Of a DNA stretch of 32,000 bases, positions 4,618 through 32,000 are shown piece after piece. Both the position numbers and the translations under genes were made by a program. This DNA is from Synechocystis sp. PCC 6803 substr. PCC-P. Its GTDB lineage: Bacteria > Cyanobacteriota > Cyanobacteriia > Cyanobacteriales > Microcystaceae. The stretch lies in the NCBI RefSeq assembly GCF_000284455.1, contig NC_017039.1:1200001-1232000 (forward strand). Reading direction: 5' to 3'. The notes under the pieces are model-generated. The model had not been told where the DNA came from. It was given only the letters and a program-made list of their open reading frames with translations, and did no database searches. Numbering within the stretch: position 1 is the stretch's first letter; every line of letters begins with the position of its first letter.

Positions 4618-5619
4618 ATGCAAAGCTGGCGACACAGGTTCCTGAGTTATGTGCTTTTAGCCTGTTTATCCTGCACTAGTTTTACTGCCTTTATTATCTA
4701 CGTTAATCTACGCCAAGCTGTAATTCAACCCACGTTTGAATTTTTGACAGAGATGACAGAGGTAAAAATTGAGCAATCAAATCATTGGTTTAGTCAATTA
4801 AAAACTGATTTTAAGGCAGACTTAACAGACACCCAAGTCAAAAAAAATGCCAGTATTTTGTTGACTCAAAGACTTAATACTAACCCTGAGTATCAGCAAG
4901 CCTACCACTATTTACACAAACATTTTAATCAAAAATATCAACAACGCCTAGCCACTTCATTAATCACCAATAGTGGCATGGTGATCTTTTCCACTGACCC
5001 CAATCAGGAGGGTCAATATCGTCCTCTACAAAATACTACAACCTATTTTAAGCTGGAAAATATCAATAATTTTACACCAAATTTTTATCAGTCTGCCACC
5101 AATCAACTACCGATGATAACCCTAGCAACTCCTTTGTTTGATCAATCAGAAAAAAGAATTGGGGTGCTGACCATAGATTTAAACTTGTCTGATCTTGACC
5201 AATGGATTCGTCAACCCGTGGCCCAGGAGGAAAATACAGAGCAATTAATGGGGGAGGTGGAAAGTTACCTAGTAGGAGGATTATCTTTAACCACCAACAC
5301 TTTTGTGAGCCAGAATATTCATCGAGGAGAAAATAAAATCAATACCACCGAAGATGTCATTTCAATCCCCACCCTAAAAAGTAATGGCATTAATAGGGCT
5401 TTGGAGATGGAAAGTGGTCAAGGCATGTATTTAAACTATGAACAAATACCTGTTTTGGGAGTTTATCGTTGGTTGCCTGCCTATCGGTTTGCCTTACTGG
5501 TGGAAGTTCGGCAGGCCAAAGTGTTTAGCTTTGCTCGGTTTCGTGCCGGGCAATTATTTGTTGGTGGTTTGGTATTCACTCTGGCGGCATCCTTTGGTTT
5601 ATTGTTGATTAAAATTTGA
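4618..5619 (+). CDS. Membrane-anchored periplasmic Cache/PDC-like sensor domain protein lacking any cytoplasmic output domain
   Basis: 333 aa. TM1 is FLSYVLLACLSCTSFTAFIIYV, followed by a ~270-aa extracytoplasmic segment. That segment ends in a Cache-like signature (GMYLNYEQIPVLGVYRWLPAYRFALLVEVRQAKVFSF). TM2 (LFVGGLVFTLAASFGLLLI) follows and the stop codon comes immediately after. The gap from the SBP gene is 7 nt. Confidence 0.6.
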   Translation: MQSWRHRFLSYVLLACLSCTSFTAFIIYVNLRQAVIQPTFEFLTEMTEVKIEQSNHWFSQLKTDFKADLTDTQVKKNASILLTQRLNTNPEYQQAYHYLHKHFNQKYQQRLATSLITNSGMVIFSTDPNQEGQYRPLQNTTTYFKLENINNFTPNFYQSATNQLPMITLATPLFDQSEKRIGVLTIDLNLSDLDQWIRQPVAQEENTEQLMGEVESYLVGGLSLTTNTFVSQNIHRGENKINTTEDVISIPTLKSNGINRALEMESGQGMYLNYEQIPVLGVYRWLPAYRFALLVEVRQAKVFSFARFRAGQLFVGGLVFTLAASFGLLLIKI

Positions 5620-5733
5620 TTGCAAATTTCCTCCTCCACAAGATAGATATCCAGGAAAATTGATCGCCACCTTAAGAGTTTTAAACAAATCCTAGACGCA
5701 AGAAATAAGCTTTTTTCTCCGTAGAATCAACGT

Positions 5734-5785
5734 CGAAAGTCCCCCTTTTTAAGCCGGAGCTTTAGTGAGGAGATTTGGGGGGATA
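5734..5785. repeat. Degenerate copy of a cyanobacterial small dispersed repeat (C5...G6 arms), possibly MITE-like
   Basis: GAAAGTCCCCCTTTTTAAG...GATTTGGGGGGAT. It resembles the widespread AAAGTCCCCCTTTTTAAGGGGGATTTAGGGGGA-type element recalled from other cyanobacterial genomes. Here the arms are interrupted, with C5 at 5741-5745 and G6 at 5777-5782. Confidence 0.25.
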
Positions 5786-6018
5786 AATACCTAGCCTCGC
5801 ACTTTTCAAACACTTTCTAAGACGAGCAGATAATTTTGGGTCTATCCCCGTCCCTTTGACCGGGTAATGATTTCAGCATAGGTAAAATTTTTTAGGCTAA
5901 GTATGGACAATGACTGTTATTTACCTGGAAATTGGAAATTCTGTCATTCCCACGGGAAAGGCCGCCCTAACCCCGTAAAATAAGGGGCAATTAGTTTTCT
6001 CGTATTTTTTCCATTGTT

Positions 6019-7065
6019 GTGAATACCACGGCTTCTTCCCCTTGGCCCCCCTTTCTCCAGCAGTTGTTGGACCGGCAATCCCTCACCCGTCAGCAGGCAG
6101 TGCAGTTAATGGAGGGTTGGCTGGACGACGATATTCCACCGGCCCTTTCCGGAGCGATACTGGCGGCAATCCAAGCTAAGGGGTTAGATCCCGAAGAGTT
6201 GACGGGCATGGCCCAGGTACTCCAGGAACAGTCCCAGGGGAACCAAGGGCGGGAGATGGTGGCCCCGTTGGTAGACACCTGTGGCACTGGGGGGGATGGC
6301 TCTTCAACTTTTAATATTTCCACGGCGGTGGCTTTTGTGGTGGCCGCGGCTGGGGTGAAAGTAGCTAAACATGGTAACCGTTCTGCTTCTAGCAAAGTTG
6401 GCTCTGCTGATGTCCTAGAGGCGTTAGGGCTTAACCTCCAAGCTGGGGCAGACCAGGTGGCGGCAGCGGTGTCGGCAGTGGGCATCACATTCTTGTTTGC
6501 GCCGGGTTGGCATCCGGCCCTCAAAAGTGTGGCTCCCATTCGCAAAACCCTTAAAGTCCGCACTGTATTCAATTTGTTGGGCCCATTGGTTAATCCTCTC
6601 CGTCCCACAGGGCAAGTGATTGGGGTTTATTCACCAGATTTTCTCTCCGTCATGGCGATCGCCTTAAAAAATTTGGGCACTGCCAGGGCCATGGTGCTCC
6701 ACGGTCGGGAGCAATTAGACGAAGCTGGTTTGGGGGCTCCCACGGACATAGCTAGTTTTAACCAGGGAGAAGTGACCCCCCAGGTATTGGATCCCCAGAA
6801 TTTCGGTTTAGCTCCGGCGCCTTTGACGGCCTTAAAGGGAGGGGATTTAGCCGAAAATGTGACCATCCTCAGCCAAGTTTTGCAGGGAAAGGGAACCCAG
6901 GCCCAGATTGATGCAGTAGCACTCAATGCCTCCTTAGCCCTCCAGGTGGGCGATGCGGTGCCCTGGGGTGACCATGGCCAAGGCATTCATTTGGCCAAAG
7001 ACATTTTGAGTCAGGGGGCGGGTTGGGACAAACTACAACAATTGGTAGCATTTCTGGGAAGCTAG
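6019..7065 (+). CDS. trpD: Anthranilate phosphoribosyltransferase
   Basis: 348 aa with a GTG start. Carries the [17 protein letters not shown] (GTGGD loop) and [21 protein letters not shown] blocks typical of TrpD. Confidence 0.95.
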
Positions 7066-7091
7066 GTTTAGTTAGTTTTAGTTTGGTTTGG

Positions 7092-7769
7092 CTAACCTTG
7101 TTCCCACAATTGTTGTTGCTGCTGAATCAATTCCACTCCCCGGGAAGTGCCCAAGCGGGTGGCGCCGGCCTCGATTAATGCTATGGCTTGCTCCACTGTG
7201 CGAATCCCTCCGGATGCTTTAATCCCCACCCGTCCTTGACTGATTTGATGTAACAACCGCACATCGGCAACGGTGGCCCCCTTGCCCCAGCCGGTGCTGG
7301 TTTTAAGGTATTGCACCCCTGCATCCAAACAAATTTCCGCTGCTAATCTTTTTTCCGATTCCGTGAGCCGGCCCATTTCCAAAATGGCTTTCACTGTTAG
7401 CCCTGTGGCTTCCACAATGGGGGCAATGTCGTTATAAACGGCTTCCGTATTACCGTCTTTTAATAATCCCAGATTAATTACCACATCCAATTCGGTGGCC
7501 CCCAATTCCGCTGCTTCCTGGGCCTCATAAAGTTTACTGCCGCTGGTGCTAGCTCCGGAGGGAAAACCAATTACCGCACAAATTTCCACTTTTTTCCCCC
7601 TCAACAATTCCACGGCTTGGGATAAAGCGCTGGGATAAACACACACCGCAACAAATTTATGGTGTAGGGCTTGGGCGCAGCAAGTGGCGATCGCCTCACG
7701 GGTGGTGGCGGGGTCTAGGGCAGCGTGGTCAATGTAGGGAGCAAGGTCAAACTGACGGGATTTTTCCAT
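7092..7769 (-). CDS. deoC: Deoxyribose-phosphate aldolase
   Basis: Carries [20 protein letters not shown] and the Schiff-base region LKTSTGW...IKASGGIRT, typical of DeoC. The ORF track extends to a TTG at 7796. The ATG at 7769 ([15 protein letters not shown]) gives the usual N-terminal length (225 aa). Confidence 0.9.
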
Positions 7770-10709: not shown

Positions 10710-11492
10710 TTAATTATTTTGGTTAGCAACGAATTTATTAACCAGTTCAACATCAATATCTAACTCCTTGGCAATTTCGGCAATTGTAAGACCTAATTTC
10801 TTCAACAGGGGTATGGTTTCTAGTTTCGCCTCCAGCCTACCTTCTAGTTTGCCGGCAATTTTACCCTCCTCTAAAATTTCTTGATAGACAGCGGATTCTT
10901 TCATAATTTCACTCCTTAAAATTGTCTTGATCAGCTCAGGGGCCAACAGAATCCCTCCAAAAACAGAGGTTGCTGCCATGAGATTTGCCTTAACCCGATT
11001 ATCCTCAATCTGTTCCAATGCAGTCGCCACTTCCCTCAATTTTAATGTAGGGTCAGAGGTCTGCGTCAATACCGCTAGGGGTAATAACCCTGGACTTTGG
11101 AGAAATGTCTCCGATGGTTGCTCCCAAAGCCGAATCGCTTGATAACGGTGTAAAGTCTCCCCCACCTGAAAACTATCCTGATAAACTAAATCATTGTTAC
11201 TACGTTTCAGGTAGATGACAAATTGGTGCATAGTCTTCTGGGGGAAACGACGATAAACCCTTACCCGATAGTCCAACATCCGAAAGCCCATGGTGGGGTC
11301 AGGCTCCGTTTGGAATTCCAGATGCAACACCAAGTCTTCCGATTGCTCCAAAATCAGGGAGTCAGCCCGAATTGGCTCCAGGGAAAGTTCCGTCGGACTC
11401 AGCTTAGTCAATTTAATGGGTCGTCCCAGTAACCAGGCGGCATAGTCTTCGGAAAAGGATTCGGCCAGAAATTTGCACAGATTGTCAAACAT
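10710..11492 (-). CDS. Rpn-family recombination-promoting nuclease / putative transposase-like protein (PD-(D/E)XK core plus DUF4351-like C-terminus)
   Basis: 260 aa. The N-terminus MFDNLCKFLAE...IRADSLILEQSEDLVLHLEFQTEPD carries the D...E-x-Q nuclease motif. The C-terminus ESAVYQEILEEGKIAGKLEG...LGLTIAEIAKELDIDVELV is typical of the multi-copy cyanobacterial Rpn/DUF4351 family. Confidence 0.8.
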   Translation of the reverse strand: MFDNLCKFLAESFSEDYAAWLLGRPIKLTKLSPTELSLEPIRADSLILEQSEDLVLHLEFQTEPDPTMGFRMLDYRVRVYRRFPQKTMHQFVIYLKRSNNDLVYQDSFQVGETLHRYQAIRLWEQPSETFLQSPGLLPLAVLTQTSDPTLKLREVATALEQIEDNRVKANLMAATSVFGGILLAPELIKTILRSEIMKESAVYQEILEEGKIAGKLEGRLEAKLETIPLLKKLGLTIAEIAKELDIDVELVNKFVANQNN

Positions 11493-13259: not shown

Positions 13260-14009
13260 ATGCCGCAATCGGAATCAAACATTGCCCTGCTAATTGATGC
13301 GGATAATGCCCCAGCGTCCAAAATTGAGGCGATCGTATCGGAAATTGCCAAATATGGAGTAGCCAATATTCGTAAAGCCTATGGCAATTGGAAAAGCCCT
13401 AACCTAAAAGCCTGGGAAGAATGTTTACATGAGTATGCCATTCGTCCCGTGCAACAGTTTGATTACACCAAGGGTAAAAATGCCACCGATGCCGCCATGA
13501 TTATTGATGCCATGGATTTGCTCTACACCCAACGGTTGGACGCCTTTGCCATTGTGTCAAGTGATTGTGACTTTACCCCTTTAGTAATGCGGATTTTGAC
13601 CAATGGACTAAAAGTTTATGGCTTTGGGGAGAAAAAAACTCCCTTGCCTTTTGTCTATGCTTGTTCGACATTTTTATACTTGGAAAGTATTGATCAAATT
13701 GAAAACTCTGAAGGGGCGACCCAAAGTTCCACTAGTGTTAAGAAAACTGGGAAGGAATTGAAACAAGACGCAAAATTAATTAGTTTACTTAGGAGTGCCA
13801 TTTCCAGCACCATTGACGACGATGGCTGGTCAAGCTTAGCTGAAATTGGCGGCCACATCAAAAACCAAGCATCCTTTGATTCCCGCAACTACGGCTATGC
13901 CAAGCTAAGTAGTTTATTTGAGGCGATTGATTTGTTTGAAATTGAGCGTAAAAACAGGGCAATTTACGTTAGGAATAGACAAAAAAAGTCCGCCACATCT
14001 AAGTCCTAG
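13260..14009 (+). CDS. NYN (LabA/DUF88-type) ribonuclease-like domain protein with a C-terminal OST-HTH/LOTUS domain
   Basis: 249 aa. IALLIDADNA...NIRKAYGNW...NATDAAMIIDAMDL...FAIVSSDCDFTPLV matches the NYN acidic-residue pattern. The C-terminal GWSSLAEIGGHIKNQASFDSRNYGYAKLSSLFEAIDLFEIE is LOTUS-like. GGAG sits 6 nt upstream of the ATG. Confidence 0.85.
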   Translation: MPQSESNIALLIDADNAPASKIEAIVSEIAKYGVANIRKAYGNWKSPNLKAWEECLHEYAIRPVQQFDYTKGKNATDAAMIIDAMDLLYTQRLDAFAIVSSDCDFTPLVMRILTNGLKVYGFGEKKTPLPFVYACSTFLYLESIDQIENSEGATQSSTSVKKTGKELKQDAKLISLLRSAISSTIDDDGWSSLAEIGGHIKNQASFDSRNYGYAKLSSLFEAIDLFEIERKNRAIYVRNRQKKSATSKS

Positions 14010-28139: not shown

Positions 28140-28191
28140 TCTTAATTTCCGCCTCTGCTGTGCCTTATTGACCGAGATTTTTCCCTTGCCC

Positions 28192-29010
28192 ATGAGTGAA
28201 CCTAACCTCAACCCCGCCTATACCCTCGACCAGGCGATCGCCAATTTGCAACAAACAGAAGATGCCAGTGCCCGTTACTATGCGGCCTGGTGGATTGGTC
28301 GTTTTCGCGCTGCTCAACCGGAAACCATTGCTGCTTTGTTGGTCGCCTTGGAAGATGAAACTGATCGCTCCCCGGACGGTGGTTATCCCCTGCGGCGTAA
28401 TGCGGCTAAAGCGTTGGGAAAATTAGGCGATCGCCAAGTGGTGCCGGCCCTAATCAAAGCCTTGGAATGTGAAGATTACTATGTGCGAGAGTCAGCGGCC
28501 CAGGCGCTGGAAGGTTTGGGGGATGCTAGAGCGATGGCACCTCTAATGGCCAAGTTAACGGGGGGATTAGCAGCGGCCCAGCTTGTGGAGGGTAAACCCC
28601 ATTTAGCCCAACCCTACGAAGCGATTATTGAAGCCCTGGGTACTCTCCAAGCTGTGGAGTCCATTGGTTTAATTGAACCGTTTCTAGAGCATTTTTCCCC
28701 GAAAGTCCAATACGCCGCCGCCAGGGCCCTATTTCAGTTAACTGGGGATAACCGTTACGGCGACCTTCTCATTACTGCTCTGGGGGGGACAGACTTACAA
28801 TTACGCCGTTCCGCCATGATGGATTTGGGAGCCACTGGCTACTTGCCCGGCGCCCAGGCGATCGCCAAAGCCTTTGCAGAAAATAGCCTCAAGTTGATCG
28901 CCCTGCGAGATTTGTGGGCCACCCATCGCCAAAGGCAAGCAAGTTCTGAATCGAAGGCGCTCAGTCCAGCTAGCCGACAAATATTGGAATTAATGGATAG
29001 TTTACTCTGA
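28192..29010 (+). CDS. cpcE: Phycocyanobilin lyase subunit CpcE (HEAT-like PBS lyase repeats)
   Basis: MSEPNLNPAYTLDQAIANLQQ...RYYAAWWIGRFR...RRNAAKALGKLGD...VRESAAQALEGLGD. The ATG at 28192 is preferred to the TTG at 28168. No cpcF lies downstream. Confidence 0.9.
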   Translation: MSEPNLNPAYTLDQAIANLQQTEDASARYYAAWWIGRFRAAQPETIAALLVALEDETDRSPDGGYPLRRNAAKALGKLGDRQVVPALIKALECEDYYVRESAAQALEGLGDARAMAPLMAKLTGGLAAAQLVEGKPHLAQPYEAIIEALGTLQAVESIGLIEPFLEHFSPKVQYAAARALFQLTGDNRYGDLLITALGGTDLQLRRSAMMDLGATGYLPGAQAIAKAFAENSLKLIALRDLWATHRQRQASSESKALSPASRQILELMDSLL

Positions 29011-29042
29011 AATAATTGGAAATTTACAGATTTACGGAGATT

Positions 29043-30239
29043 TCAAGCTAGCCCCAGGGATTCTTCCAACGCACCAATTACGACTTCCGCCACCTGTTGA
29101 ATGCGAAAACGACAGGCCAGGGTTTCAGTGGAATTAAAACTGCCATTTTCCCAAAATTTATTACTGCCAGCGCCACCACCACACAAACCGAAATAATCAC
29201 AGGTTTGGCGACATTTTTCCACCCCCTGGGTCATATCGTGGTAAATGCGCTGGAATTTTTCCGTTTGACAAATAGATGCAAAAGAATCCGTTAACACATT
29301 ACCAAAAATAAAATCACCATACTGGGGCGTTTTAATGGCTAATAATTCTGGGTCAAAGGTGGAAAAGTTACCCTGGTGGTCGATGCTAACAATGGCAAAG
29401 GGACGATTCATATCCGTGTGATCGAGACGGTCTTCGGTGTAAATCAAATTGCATAAACATTCAAATTCCCGCACTCGAAATTCTGGTTCACTGGTGCTGG
29501 TTAATTGCCAAAATCGTTCCAAAAATTGTCGATATTTTTGTAAAGTGCCCTGTTTATTCAGGGAAGATTCTGTGTTAATTCCCTCTGTTTCTTCCATATT
29601 AAAACCCACATCCAGTAGGTTATGATCCCGGAAAAAGTGAAAAATTTCGTCGGGATAATCTAAAGATTCTTCAGTTAAAACTGCAATAACACTGTGACAA
29701 ATATCATTTTTTTGTAACCATTCAATGCCTCGCATGGTGGCGGCATGGCTACCCCGGCCAGTTCTGGTTTTACGGTGTTTATCGTGGAGAAAAGCGGGGC
29801 CGTCTAAACTAATACCCACATGGACAGGATATTGTTTAAAGAGGTCACACCAAGCTTGGTTAATTAAAATGCCATTACTTTGAAAGGAATGGTCAAACCA
29901 CAGTTGGCGGTGATTGTATTTTTCCCCGTAGGTTTCGATCTTGGCAAAAGCCTGACGGTAAAATTCTAGCCCAGCGGCCAATGGTTCCCCCGCATGCCAA
30001 CACAGACTAAAGTTGCTAGTGGTAAAAGGGCTAGCAAAAATCGCCTGCATAATTGGTTCCAACAAATCCAGGGGCAGATGATTTTTTAAATGGCGATCGG
30101 GTAAGTAACAATAATCACAATCTAAATTGCAATAGGAAGTGGGTTGAATAATAATTAAATTGGTGGGGCCAAAATTAGTTATGTCCACATCCCTTATACT
30201 TTCATTAATGGGTTGGGTTTGGTTGACTAAAGCTTGCAT
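29043..30239 (-). CDS. grrM: Radical SAM / SPASM-type maturase of the Gly-rich-repeat modification (GRRM) family, related to anaerobic sulfatase-maturase-like enzymes
   Basis: 398 aa. CNLDCDYC (CX3CX2C) at aa 37-44 was checked against the DNA at 30108-30131. GEPL follows. Seven Cys lie in the C-terminal 140 aa (C261, C263, C324, C343, C347, C353, C376), including CRQTCDYFGLCGGG. It is the last gene of a same-strand cluster with the Gly-rich precursors. The symbol follows the GRRM naming as I recall it. Confidence 0.9.
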   Translation of the reverse strand: MQALVNQTQPINESIRDVDITNFGPTNLIIIQPTSYCNLDCDYCYLPDRHLKNHLPLDLLEPIMQAIFASPFTTSNFSLCWHAGEPLAAGLEFYRQAFAKIETYGEKYNHRQLWFDHSFQSNGILINQAWCDLFKQYPVHVGISLDGPAFLHDKHRKTRTGRGSHAATMRGIEWLQKNDICHSVIAVLTEESLDYPDEIFHFFRDHNLLDVGFNMEETEGINTESSLNKQGTLQKYRQFLERFWQLTSTSEPEFRVREFECLCNLIYTEDRLDHTDMNRPFAIVSIDHQGNFSTFDPELLAIKTPQYGDFIFGNVLTDSFASICQTEKFQRIYHDMTQGVEKCRQTCDYFGLCGGGAGSNKFWENGSFNSTETLACRFRIQQVAEVVIGALEESLGLA

Positions 30240-30278
30240 AAGTGATCACCAATTGAGGCAAATGATTTGTTATTACAA

Positions 30279-30797
30279 TTAAAGGGGAGAAGTACATACC
30301 CAGATTGACTTTTGTTCATTAACTGGATCCATAATCAGTTGTGGCGCTAACCCTAAATTAGATTCCCTTGTTTCTTCAAAGTTAGAACCAAATACTGCTT
30401 GAAGTGGTTCACGGGCAATCTCCACAGGAACCTCAAAGGTGACAGCATAAACTCCCCAGGTGCCCGCCGGAATCATAACTGCTGAAACAGGAAGACCGTA
30501 ATAACTTTCCTTAATTTGATAGTAAGCAAAGTCATCCTCGATTTTATCTGGCACAAGACGCTGAAAAAATCGATGTTTTGGCCGATCAATCCCTTCCCAG
30601 GGAGCAAGATAAACTCCTTCAAATTTACATTCAGGAAAGCTCCGCATCATGTCCTCAAAATCACTGGCAAAGTTATCGGTAATGACTTTCGCCGGCTCGG
30701 CAAGAAGGGGTTGGGATGGTAATAGTTGGTAACCAACAATTGCCAGGGAGACTATCACTACCCGATAAGCAGAAACAGATGAGAAAGAAAACAGCAA
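30279..30797 (-). CDS. Hypothetical secreted protein embedded in the GRRM cluster
   Basis: 172 aa with a TTG start. The signal-like N-terminus is YRVVIVSLAIVGYQLLPSQPLLA-EP. The mature part contains two Cys. No recognisable domain. The gaps are 44 nt to the upstream gene and 39 nt to the downstream gene. Confidence 0.65.
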   Translation of the reverse strand: MLFSFSSVSAYRVVIVSLAIVGYQLLPSQPLLAEPAKVITDNFASDFEDMMRSFPECKFEGVYLAPWEGIDRPKHRFFQRLVPDKIEDDFAYYQIKESYYGLPVSAVMIPAGTWGVYAVTFEVPVEIAREPLQAVFGSNFEETRESNLGLAPQLIMDPVNEQKSIWVCTSPL

Positions 30798-30841
30798 TTT
30801 TGTTCCCTAGGTTTCAGTGTTGGCTGTGAAATGTTAGTAAA

Positions 30842-31276
30842 CTACCAACGATTAACAAAACCACCGCCGCCGCCCCGGTTAACAAAGCCTCCCCCGTCTC
30901 CCCAACCATTGCCCCAGGGATTATTAACATTGGCAAAGCCGCCGCCCCCACTGCCATCGGCCCAGCCGCCGCGCCCGACATTAGCAAAGCCACCGCCCCC
31001 GGCACCATCACCCCATCCTCCCCGCCGGGCATTACCAAAACCACCACCACCGCCACCATTGGCAAAACCAGCTTGTAGATTAGCTCGATTGATGGGAGTT
31101 TCCTCTGGGGACATTTGATTAGCCCTTTGCTGTAGAGCTGAGCTGATATTGTTTAACCGAGTGGAAAGGGCATTCTGAGAATTAGTTGCCAGGGCATTGC
31201 CCGGTTCTGCCACTGTTCCGATCGCCGTTAGGGCAATTACAAATGCTGTCCAGCTAGAGCGGTTATTGATAGCCAT
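30842..31276 (-). CDS. grrA: Gly-rich repeat precursor protein B (signal peptide, leader-like segment, 75-aa G/W/F/N repeat tail)
   Basis: The track ORF runs to 31333. The ATG at 31276 (MAINNRSSWTAFVIALTAIG) aligns with the paralogue's N-terminus (MNSNQLSWTAFLVAIAG) and has GGGAG about 8 nt upstream. The tail is GFANGGGGGGFGNARRGGWGDGAGGGGFANVGRGGWADGSGGGGFANVNNPWGNGWGDGGGFVNRGGGGGFVNRW. Confidence 0.85.
   Translation of the reverse strand: MAINNRSSWTAFVIALTAIGTVAEPGNALATNSQNALSTRLNNISSALQQRANQMSPEETPINRANLQAGFANGGGGGGFGNARRGGWGDGAGGGGFANVGRGGWADGSGGGGFANVNNPWGNGWGDGGGFVNRGGGGGFVNRW
30845..31069 (-). repeat. In-frame coding tandem repeat (about 51 nt / 17 aa unit) in precursor B
   Basis: On the plus strand, attggcaaagccgccgcccccactgccatcggcccagccgccgcgcccgac is followed by attagcaaagccaccgcccccggcaccatcaccccatcctccccgccgggc. 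These encode RGGWADGSGGGGFANVN and RGGWGDGAGGGGFANVG. More degenerate copies flank them. Confidence 0.8.
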
Positions 31277-31342
31277 GGATATTGCTCCCAGATTAATGAG
31301 GTGATGGGGAAAGAACAGATGGATGGATCTCAATGATAAGCC

Positions 31343-31747
31343 TTACCAACGGTTGATGAAGCCGCCCCCATCAGGCCAACGACGGTTATAGAAACCGCCC
31401 CGATCGCCCCAGCCGTTACGCCAAGGATTGATATTGCCGAAGCCACCGCCCCCTCGGCCATTGCCCCAGCCACCTCTACCTAGGTTAACAAATGTACCGC
31501 CACCTCGCCCATTACCCCAACCGATCGCCACCTGCATAGGGGTTTCTGGAGATTGGGAAGCATTTTCTGGGGAATTAGCTTTATCAGCAGTGTTTTTAAG
31601 GCTGGAATTAATGCGAGCAATGCGGGATTCAATGGTGGTGCCTTGATCTGGGCCATGATGGTCAACAGTGGCAGCCTGAGCTGAAGCGGACGTTACCCCG
31701 GCGATCGCCACCAGGAAAGCGGTCCAGCTAAGTTGGTTAGAGTTCAT
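31343..31747 (-). CDS. grrA: Gly-rich repeat precursor protein A (signal peptide, leader-like segment, 60-aa G/W/F/N repeat tail)
   Basis: 134 aa. The signal peptide is MNSNQLSWTAFLVAIAGVTSASAQA. The tail is IGWGNGRGGGTFVNLGRGGWGNGRGGGGFGNINPWRNGWGDRGGFYNRRWPDGGGFINRW. It shares the C-terminal F-[VI]-N-R-W with the paralogue and contains no Cys. Confidence 0.9.
   Translation of the reverse strand: MNSNQLSWTAFLVAIAGVTSASAQAATVDHHGPDQGTTIESRIARINSSLKNTADKANSPENASQSPETPMQVAIGWGNGRGGGTFVNLGRGGWGNGRGGGGFGNINPWRNGWGDRGGFYNRRWPDGGGFINRW
31346..31525 (-). repeat. Degenerate coding repeats (GRGG-W-G-N-G / GGG-F-x-N units) in precursor A
   Basis: GWGNGRGGGTFVNLGRGGWGNGRGGGGFGNIN contains two consecutive copies of about 15-17 aa. 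The C-terminal units are shorter. Confidence 0.7.
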
Positions 31748-31855
31748 GACAAATACCTAAAAATGGACAACAACAATGGGGGTAGGGATTAGCCAAGGTT
31801 GGAACAGTCCCCAAAACGTGCCAACCAAATTACTACCAATTAAAGTCAACTTCGT

Positions 31856-32000
31856 TTACTGGCCATTTTTGGGTTCCATCACCTGCTCATGGGTAATTAC
31901 TAGGTAATTAAAAAATTGACGGAGATTGTCATTGTCCACGGGCACAATACCTTCGGTGCCGATCCATTTGTCAACGATGGCCACATCTTCCGGATCCCCT
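31856..32000 (-). CDS. 3' end of an unidentified gene running off the window edge
   Basis: My translation of the minus strand from 31999: GDPEDVAIVDKWIGTEGIVPVDNDNLRQFFNYLVITHEQVMEPKNGQ*, with the TAA at 31858-31856. The frame stays open to the window edge. No family recognised. Confidence 0.45.
   Translation of the reverse strand, partial: GDPEDVAIVDKWIGTEGIVPVDNDNLRQFFNYLVITHEQVMEPKNGQ

Follow-up and report, generated by a model that had tools for sequence, protein, structure and literature searches.

At the right-hand end of the window analyzed here, a 32,000-nucleotide (nt) stretch of the chromosome of Synechocystis sp. PCC 6803 substr. PCC-P (NC_017039.1, positions 1,200,001 to 1,232,000), lie four co-directional open reading frames (ORFs) on the minus strand, sll1763-sll1764-sll1765-sll1766. 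The first two encode Gly-rich repeat proteins, referred to below as precursors A and B: A is sll1763 (31343..31747, 134 amino acids, an exact match to BAA17687.1), and B is sll1764 (30842..31276, 144 amino acids when read from its ATG, an exact match to BAA17686.1). They are followed by sll1765 (30279..30797), a hypothetical protein of 172 amino acids from a TTG start (159 in another annotation), and by sll1766 (29043..30239, 398 amino acids, an exact match to BAA17684.1), assigned below to the GrrM/OscB family of radical S-adenosylmethionine (SAM)/SPASM maturases. Because all four genes are on the minus strand and are separated by gaps of 39-66 nt, they probably constitute one operon. A simple scan of 28900..32000 located no convincing promoter or terminator within it; the sites returned were fewer than in shuffled sequence, and none was informative. 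Judged from the sequences of the locus and its relatives, the cluster is, with a probability of roughly 90%, a Gly-rich repeat (GRR) triceptide system made up of two paralogous precursors, the lineage-specific sll1765, and a GrrM/OscB maturase.

The start of B differs between annotations. The mechanical ORF extends to a TTG at 31333, adding 19 codons upstream (31277..31333) to give a product of 163 amino acids. This is the form used by JGI, whereas the NCBI record and the family alignment favor the ATG at 31276.

Each precursor ends in a Gly-rich core. That of A comprises residues 76-134 (31346..31522, minus strand; 39% Gly) and contains nine non-overlapping triads in which an aromatic residue is followed, two positions on, by Asn or Asp (Ar-X-N/D); these are, in order, WGN, FVN, WGN, FGN, WRN, WGD, FYN, WPD, and FIN. 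The core of B comprises residues 70-144 (30845..31069, minus strand; 47% Gly) and contains 10 such triads: FAN, FGN, WGD, FAN, WAD, FAN, WGN, WGD, FVN, and FVN. The original prediction had listed these 19 motifs from the letters of the DNA and had named the C-terminal Trp of the shared F-[VI]-N-R-W ending as the sole Phe or Trp of either tail without Asn or Asp at +2, and translation reproduces its list exactly. The span that it assigned to them, 30845..31525, begins at the last codon of B, reaches as far as the beginning of A's tail, and therefore takes in the leader of B as well. The triads, which never overlap, make up 27 of 59 residues in the tail of A and 30 of 75 in that of B, and they account for nearly all of the Asn and Asp of the tails (nine of 10 in A, 10 of 12 in B). 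In A, Tyr120 occupies the central position of the F-Y-N triad. Across the two proteins, which are 39% identical, the pairing of aromatic residue and acceptor is uneven, with 10 Phe-Asn, five Trp-Asp, four Trp-Asn, and no Phe-Asp triads. The rule is a property of the tails: in the hydrophobic N-terminal segments it is broken by W8 and F11 of A and by W9 and F12 of B.

Composition-preserving shuffles of the tails (200,000 for each) yielded 1.7 motifs on average and seven at most, and none reached the nine of A or the 10 of B. Because the copies of a repeat are not independent of one another, comparison of orthologs provides a stronger control. Two sets were assembled. A search with A returned 92 homologs, most of which bear the name 'rSAM-associated Gly-rich repeat protein' or GrrA/OscA1, and a second set consisted of 80 genomic loci from species-level genomes, nearly all of Cyanobacteria, that encode GrrM homologs (52-93% identity), in which a hidden Markov model (HMM) built from the homologs of A identified 88 precursor ORFs. 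Asn or Asp is found at +2 from 786 of the 832 tail Phe and Trp residues in the first set (94.5%) and from 657 of 692 in the second (94.9%). Comparison with shuffled controls had been proposed along with the original list of motifs, and the motifs pass it: in 500 shuffles of the 88 ORFs the rate was 16.0 ± 1.2% and never rose above 19.3%. The exceptions are mostly aromatics in the center of F-F-N or F-W-N triads, and there are rare W-x-K triads too. The motifs number between four and 11 per precursor, with a median of eight, so the earlier description of the PCC 6803 tails as unusually dense does not hold; nine or 10 motifs are ordinary for the GrrA family.

The orthologs also display a marked preference in the acceptor residue. 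Asp at +2 is nearly restricted to Trp, with 97 WxD against five FxD triads in the ORFs of the GrrM loci and 150 against six in the database homologs, a bias that mirrors the specificity reported for OscB. Taken over approximately 180 precursors, this tally provides a rule for the prediction of cross-linking sites, according to which Asp accepts a cross-link almost exclusively when the triad begins with Trp, and the second aromatic of an Ar-Ar-N triad is no donor. The best conserved stretch of the GrrA alignment is NPW-R-N-G-W-G-D-GGG-F-x-N-R. The C-terminal residue of the precursors (at 31346..31348 in A and 30845..30847 in B, minus strand), scored in 80 ORFs, is Trp in 42, Arg in 23, Tyr in 11, and Phe in four, the usual endings being F-x-N-R-W or F-x-N-W; an aromatic residue in the terminal position cannot make a triad.

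Between one and four GrrA ORFs are present in 71 of the 80 GrrM loci, nearly always directly upstream of the maturase gene and on the same strand. Two of the loci carry non-cyanobacterial labels. One, at 5362..7143 of a complete 'Candidatus Lustribacter' chromosome (OZ255707.1), encodes both GrrA and GrrM; its precursor contains about nine triads by reading of the tail and gives 15 matches when a regular expression is counted with overlaps. The other is in a metagenome-assembled genome labeled 'Chitinophaga pinensis', where the layout of GrrA and GrrM looks identical to that of Cyanobium loci, and this locus may be mis-binned.

The assignment of the enzyme and both of its putative substrates to known families rests on curated HMM scores well above their cut-offs and on identical RefSeq names. 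The product of sll1766 matches TIGR04261, the model of the cyclophane-forming maturase GrrM/OscB, over the entire profile (positions 1-363 of 363) with a score of 638.3 bits against a cut-off of 310 (E = 3.3e-192). For TIGR04260, the model of the GrrA/OscA1 family of cyclophane-containing, radical SAM-modified RiPPs (peptides synthesized ribosomally and modified after translation), the cut-off is 31 bits, and A and B score 75.7 and 60.0, respectively. In RefSeq, the exact sequences of sll1763, sll1764, and sll1766 already bear the names GrrA/OscA1 and GrrM/OscB. The maturase contains the radical SAM motif CX3CX2C (C37/C41/C44) and a C-terminal cluster of Cys residues (C324, C343, C347, C353, and C376), and Pfam recognizes its Radical_SAM domain with 58 bits. 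Thus, sll1766 combines a full-length match to the family model with the Cys motifs and with same-strand adjacency to GrrA precursors, and the precursors combine scores above the cut-off with a Gly-rich (W/F)-X-(N/D) core that lacks Cys and with a cyanobacterial distribution.

The absence of Cys is complete in both A and B, and a Cys beyond residue 30 is found in only one of 80 ORFs of the GrrA family. A thioether product of the sactipeptide or ranthipeptide class was therefore rejected, in agreement with the argument made when the motifs were first noticed.

The chemistry of the family is known from OscB (OIP69445.1; IPR026357). Co-expression of this enzyme with its precursor in Escherichia coli, followed by two-dimensional nuclear magnetic resonance (NMR), identified C-C cross-links between residues i and i+2, forming three-residue cyclophanes (PMC11002830, summarizing Nguyen et al., Nat. 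Chem. 2020). The bonds connect C7 of Trp to Cβ of Asn or Asp and C4 of Phe to Cβ of Asn; the products are termed triceptides, and the enzymes three-residue cyclophane-forming enzymes, or 3-CyFEs (PMC11002830). Either one or several cyclophanes may form (PMC9304569). The proposal that a radical SAM enzyme links the aromatic ring to Cβ of the Asn or Asp at +2 thus matches both the publications on OscB (PMC11002830) and the assignments to TIGR04260 and TIGR04261. By analogy with OscB, formation of the Ar(i)-to-Cβ(i+2) bond is predicted for sll1766.

Of the characterized systems, OscA/OscB (GrrA/GrrM) is the closest. It has in common with the PCC 6803 cluster the enzyme family (TIGR04261/IPR026357) and the precursor family (TIGR04260), the location of one or more precursor genes directly upstream of the maturase, the (W/F)-X-(N/D) motifs in a Gly-rich C-terminal core, and the choice of acceptor, Phe being paired with Asn, and Trp with either Asn or Asp. 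The differences are that the characterized system is from Oscillatoriales, whereas the orthologous PCC 6803 cluster is known here from sequence, and that in PCC 6803 an extra lineage-specific ORF, sll1765, stands between precursors and maturase. More distant are XncB/XyeB and MscB/FxsB, which represent other subfamilies of triceptide enzymes and are radical SAM/SPASM proteins that also make a bond from an aromatic ring at i to Cβ at i+2. The homology of sll1766 to these is weak (65.9 bits for XyeB and 121 bits for FxsB, far under the cut-offs), their precursors are short and not Gly-rich, and the taxa in which they are found differ; moreover, XncB links C6 of Trp to Arg or Asn, and MscB links C4 of Phe to Ser. 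The next-best HMM match of sll1766 is to the cyclophane-forming maturase AmcB (NF041718), but with 296 bits against a cut-off of 425 it is not a member of that family. The nearest solved structures are those of ChlB (PDB 9gm3) and of the anaerobic sulfatase-maturating enzyme, anSME (PDB 4k37), with E of about 6e-21. AmcB, ChlB, and anSME all share with sll1766 a radical SAM core and an auxiliary-cluster domain. However, ChlB is a triceptide synthase that acts on Tyr-Asp-Arg motifs, and anSME oxidizes Cys or Ser to formylglycine, making no C-C bond.

A GRR triceptide pathway at this locus can be outlined by carrying over the mechanism of the characterized GrrM/OscB family. By analogy, GrrM would bind the precursor, probably at the conserved leader segment that contains IE.RL.RI, and SAM would be cleaved reductively at the [4Fe-4S] cluster of the CX3CX2C motif. 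The resulting 5'-deoxyadenosyl radical would take a hydrogen from Cβ of the Asn or Asp at position 3 of a triad, and the carbon radical so formed would add to the ring at position 1, at C7 of Trp or C4 of Phe. Oxidation and deprotonation would then restore aromaticity, leaving a three-residue cyclophane and a loss of 2 Da for every ring closed. With their nine and 10 non-overlapping triads, A and B would together offer 19 candidate sites for ring closure, with Gly-rich spacers between them.

The regions that precede the core have a common architecture throughout the GrrA family. From N to C terminus, the alignment consists of a hydrophobic segment (SW.GFLLALS.L), a variable linker, the motif IE.RL.RI...LK with its invariant Arg, and the Gly-rich core. 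In A, the conserved leader segment extends from I39 to K51 (IESRIARINSSLK; 31595..31633, minus strand), and R42 within it is the same in all 20 sequences compared; the alignment partner in B is L37-Q49 (LSTRLNNISSALQ; 31130..31168, minus strand). We infer that I39-K51 of A is the element recognized by the maturase. The first 26 residues of A (31670..31747, minus strand) form a signal peptide-like hydrophobic segment that ends in A-Q-A, the best hydrophobic 15-mer starting at residue 9, and B has a similar N terminus (31187..31276, minus strand). This is general, in that 85 of 87 full-length GrrA homologs have a hydrophobic 12-mer within residues 1-36, and in 81 of the 87 a small-x-A motif comes behind it, the median site falling after residue 25. 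These calls come from a crude heuristic of hydrophobicity and A-x-A rather than from a dedicated predictor. The resemblance to a Sec signal peptide suggests that GrrA proteins are exported, and because the window contains no RiPP protease or exporter gene among its ORFs, we infer that the modified protein would leave the cell via Sec after modification in the cytoplasm.

This opens a broader and decidedly tentative idea of what the products might be, namely Sec-exported, poly-cyclophane, Gly-rich proteins of the envelope or extracellular matrix rather than small diffusible natural products. In this reading, which we regard as conceivable but, on balance, doubtful, the so-called leader would be made up of a signal peptide and, behind it, a segment for recognition by the maturase. 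If true, it would account both for the dispensability of a protease or exporter in the cluster and for the wide conservation of the system across Cyanobacteria.

Several of the same features could be turned against cross-linking altogether. The precursors are long for RiPPs (134-144 amino acids), their N termini resemble signal peptides, and the neighborhood is without a protease or transporter gene, so it might be imagined that Ar-X-N/D is conserved for a structural or physical role, because the Gly/aromatic/Asn repeat adopts some particular fold or assembly (a secreted Gly-rich envelope protein with aromatic-Asn ladders, for example), with the radical SAM enzyme acting elsewhere or on another substrate. 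We consider this most improbable. Precursor and maturase genes lie next to each other in 71 of the 80 genomes, the curated equivalog models carry an explicit link to cyclophane formation demonstrated by experiment, and the acceptors that follow each aromatic residue (Asn after Phe, Asn or Asp after Trp) match the reported specificity of the enzyme. The two roles are in any case compatible, since a structural function could be served by the very triads that are cross-linked.

Some observations nevertheless weigh against the assignment of the locus as a GRR triceptide system with exported products. With the Pfam SPASM model, sll1766 reaches just 18.6 bits, short of the gathering score of 21.5, and the spacing of the Cys residues (C-x3-C-x5-C ... 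C) is not the canonical CX2CX5CX3C; because the Pfam score is below threshold, support for the auxiliary SPASM domain comes from the HMM of the family and from the Cys pattern instead. Export depends on the crude heuristic described above, and the n-region of A has neither Lys nor Arg. Neither mass spectrometry nor NMR data on sll1763 or sll1764 turned up in the literature, and our literature search, which did not extend to supplementary files, returned no mention of sll1763-sll1766. The motif, the enzyme, and the chemistry are already known; they were published between 2020 and 2024, and RefSeq has built them into its entries for these very genes. Since RefSeq already annotates the proteins with this function, the finding is not new.

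Within the GRR triceptide reading, a narrower question is how many of the 19 triads become rings. It is possible, if not what we would expect, that only a subset is cross-linked in vivo, giving a heterogeneous product. The stapled subset could, for instance, be the highly conserved NPW-R-N-G-W-G-D-GGG-F-x-N core, with the other triads serving in binding, spacing, or solubility. Conservation along the tail is indeed uneven, the columns near N105, W109-N111, W113-D115, and F119-N121 of A being invariant or nearly so, while repeats nearer the N terminus differ in number from one family member to another. Steric hindrance might also play a part, as neighboring triads can be separated by a single Gly (W-R-N-G-W-G-D). 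However, Asn or Asp at +2 is approximately 95% conserved at all tail aromatics, including those of the variable-copy repeats, a pattern that speaks for selection acting on each triad. Partial modification is likewise disfavored by the title of a 2024 paper on OscB (Purushothaman et al., ACS Chem. Biol.), which mentions uniform topology and broad acceptance of Gly-rich precursors.

A different concern is raised by sll1765, which lies between precursor B and the maturase and has an N-terminal hydrophobic helix. No NCBIfam or Pfam model matches it. Its seven homologs are all within the Synechocystis clade, and it is present in only two of the 80 GrrM loci, the two closest; on this distribution, sll1765 is a lineage-specific insertion, a passenger or accessory rather than a core component of the system. 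An AlphaFold2 model derived from the seven-sequence alignment was too poor to use (mean predicted local distance difference test score of 46 and predicted template modeling score of 0.35). Because the insertion breaks the direct adjacency of precursors and maturase, and does so only in the closest Synechocystis relatives, it could be supposed that PCC 6803 carries a silent or decaying cluster, its precursors having been uncoupled from their maturase. A simple scan of 31748..32000, upstream of the operon, found no promoter-like site, which would be in keeping with such a loss. The condition of the genes makes it very unlikely, though: all four ORFs are intact, their proteins are 100% conserved over hundreds of PCC 6803-type contigs, related Synechocystis orthologs are 57-95% identical and retain the motifs, and only short gaps separate the genes, no convincing terminator being found inside the operon.

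The repeats from which the cores are built can be followed at the level of DNA. In B, Tandem Repeats Finder identified a unit of 51 nt (17 amino acids) at 30927..31063, with 2.7 copies and 75% matches, and a second of 27 nt (nine amino acids) at the C terminus, at 30852..30903, with 1.9 copies encoding GGGFVNRGG and GGGFVNRW. The period of 17 amino acids or 51 nt named in the original prediction is clear in B, where 51 nt is the best self-offset of the DNA, but not in A, where the same offset is again the best yet is weak (51% identity, about two copies). Its suggestion of expansion by in-frame duplication fits the homologs, in which the upstream repeats differ in copy number as whole blocks, visible as block insertions in the family alignment; this block-wise variation, together with the tandem DNA repeats of B, argues for in-frame duplication of repeat units. 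The copy number of GrrA repeats would thus vary through duplication of units such as those of 51 and 27 nt in B.

As a discovery the assignment has small weight, and its residual value is practical, in that the cluster sits in the best-studied model cyanobacterium. We found no report in the literature of a physiological role for GRR triceptides. With its two precursors and its genetic tractability, PCC 6803 is a suitable organism in which to seek that role, to see whether the product is exported, and to count the stapled sites.

No additional GrrA gene was found across the window beyond sll1763 and sll1764. Downstream of sll1766, on the opposite strand, is cpcE (28168..29010), and the rest of the window is occupied by housekeeping genes, among them trpD, deoC, mutS2, ddl, and those for a GH116 glycosidase, a PP2C phosphatase, a UbiB-like kinase, an Opp-type permease, a hydrogenase maturation protease, and an FAH-family hydrolase. 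Two other ORFs of the window were noted. One, at 10710..11492 on the minus strand, belongs to the Rpn family (recombination-promoting nuclease/putative transposase; TIGR01784, 174 bits) and lies in an otherwise housekeeping neighborhood. The other, at 13260..14009 on the plus strand, combines NYN and OST-HTH/LOTUS domains, is predicted to be an RNase with an RNA-binding module, and is flanked by unassigned ORFs.

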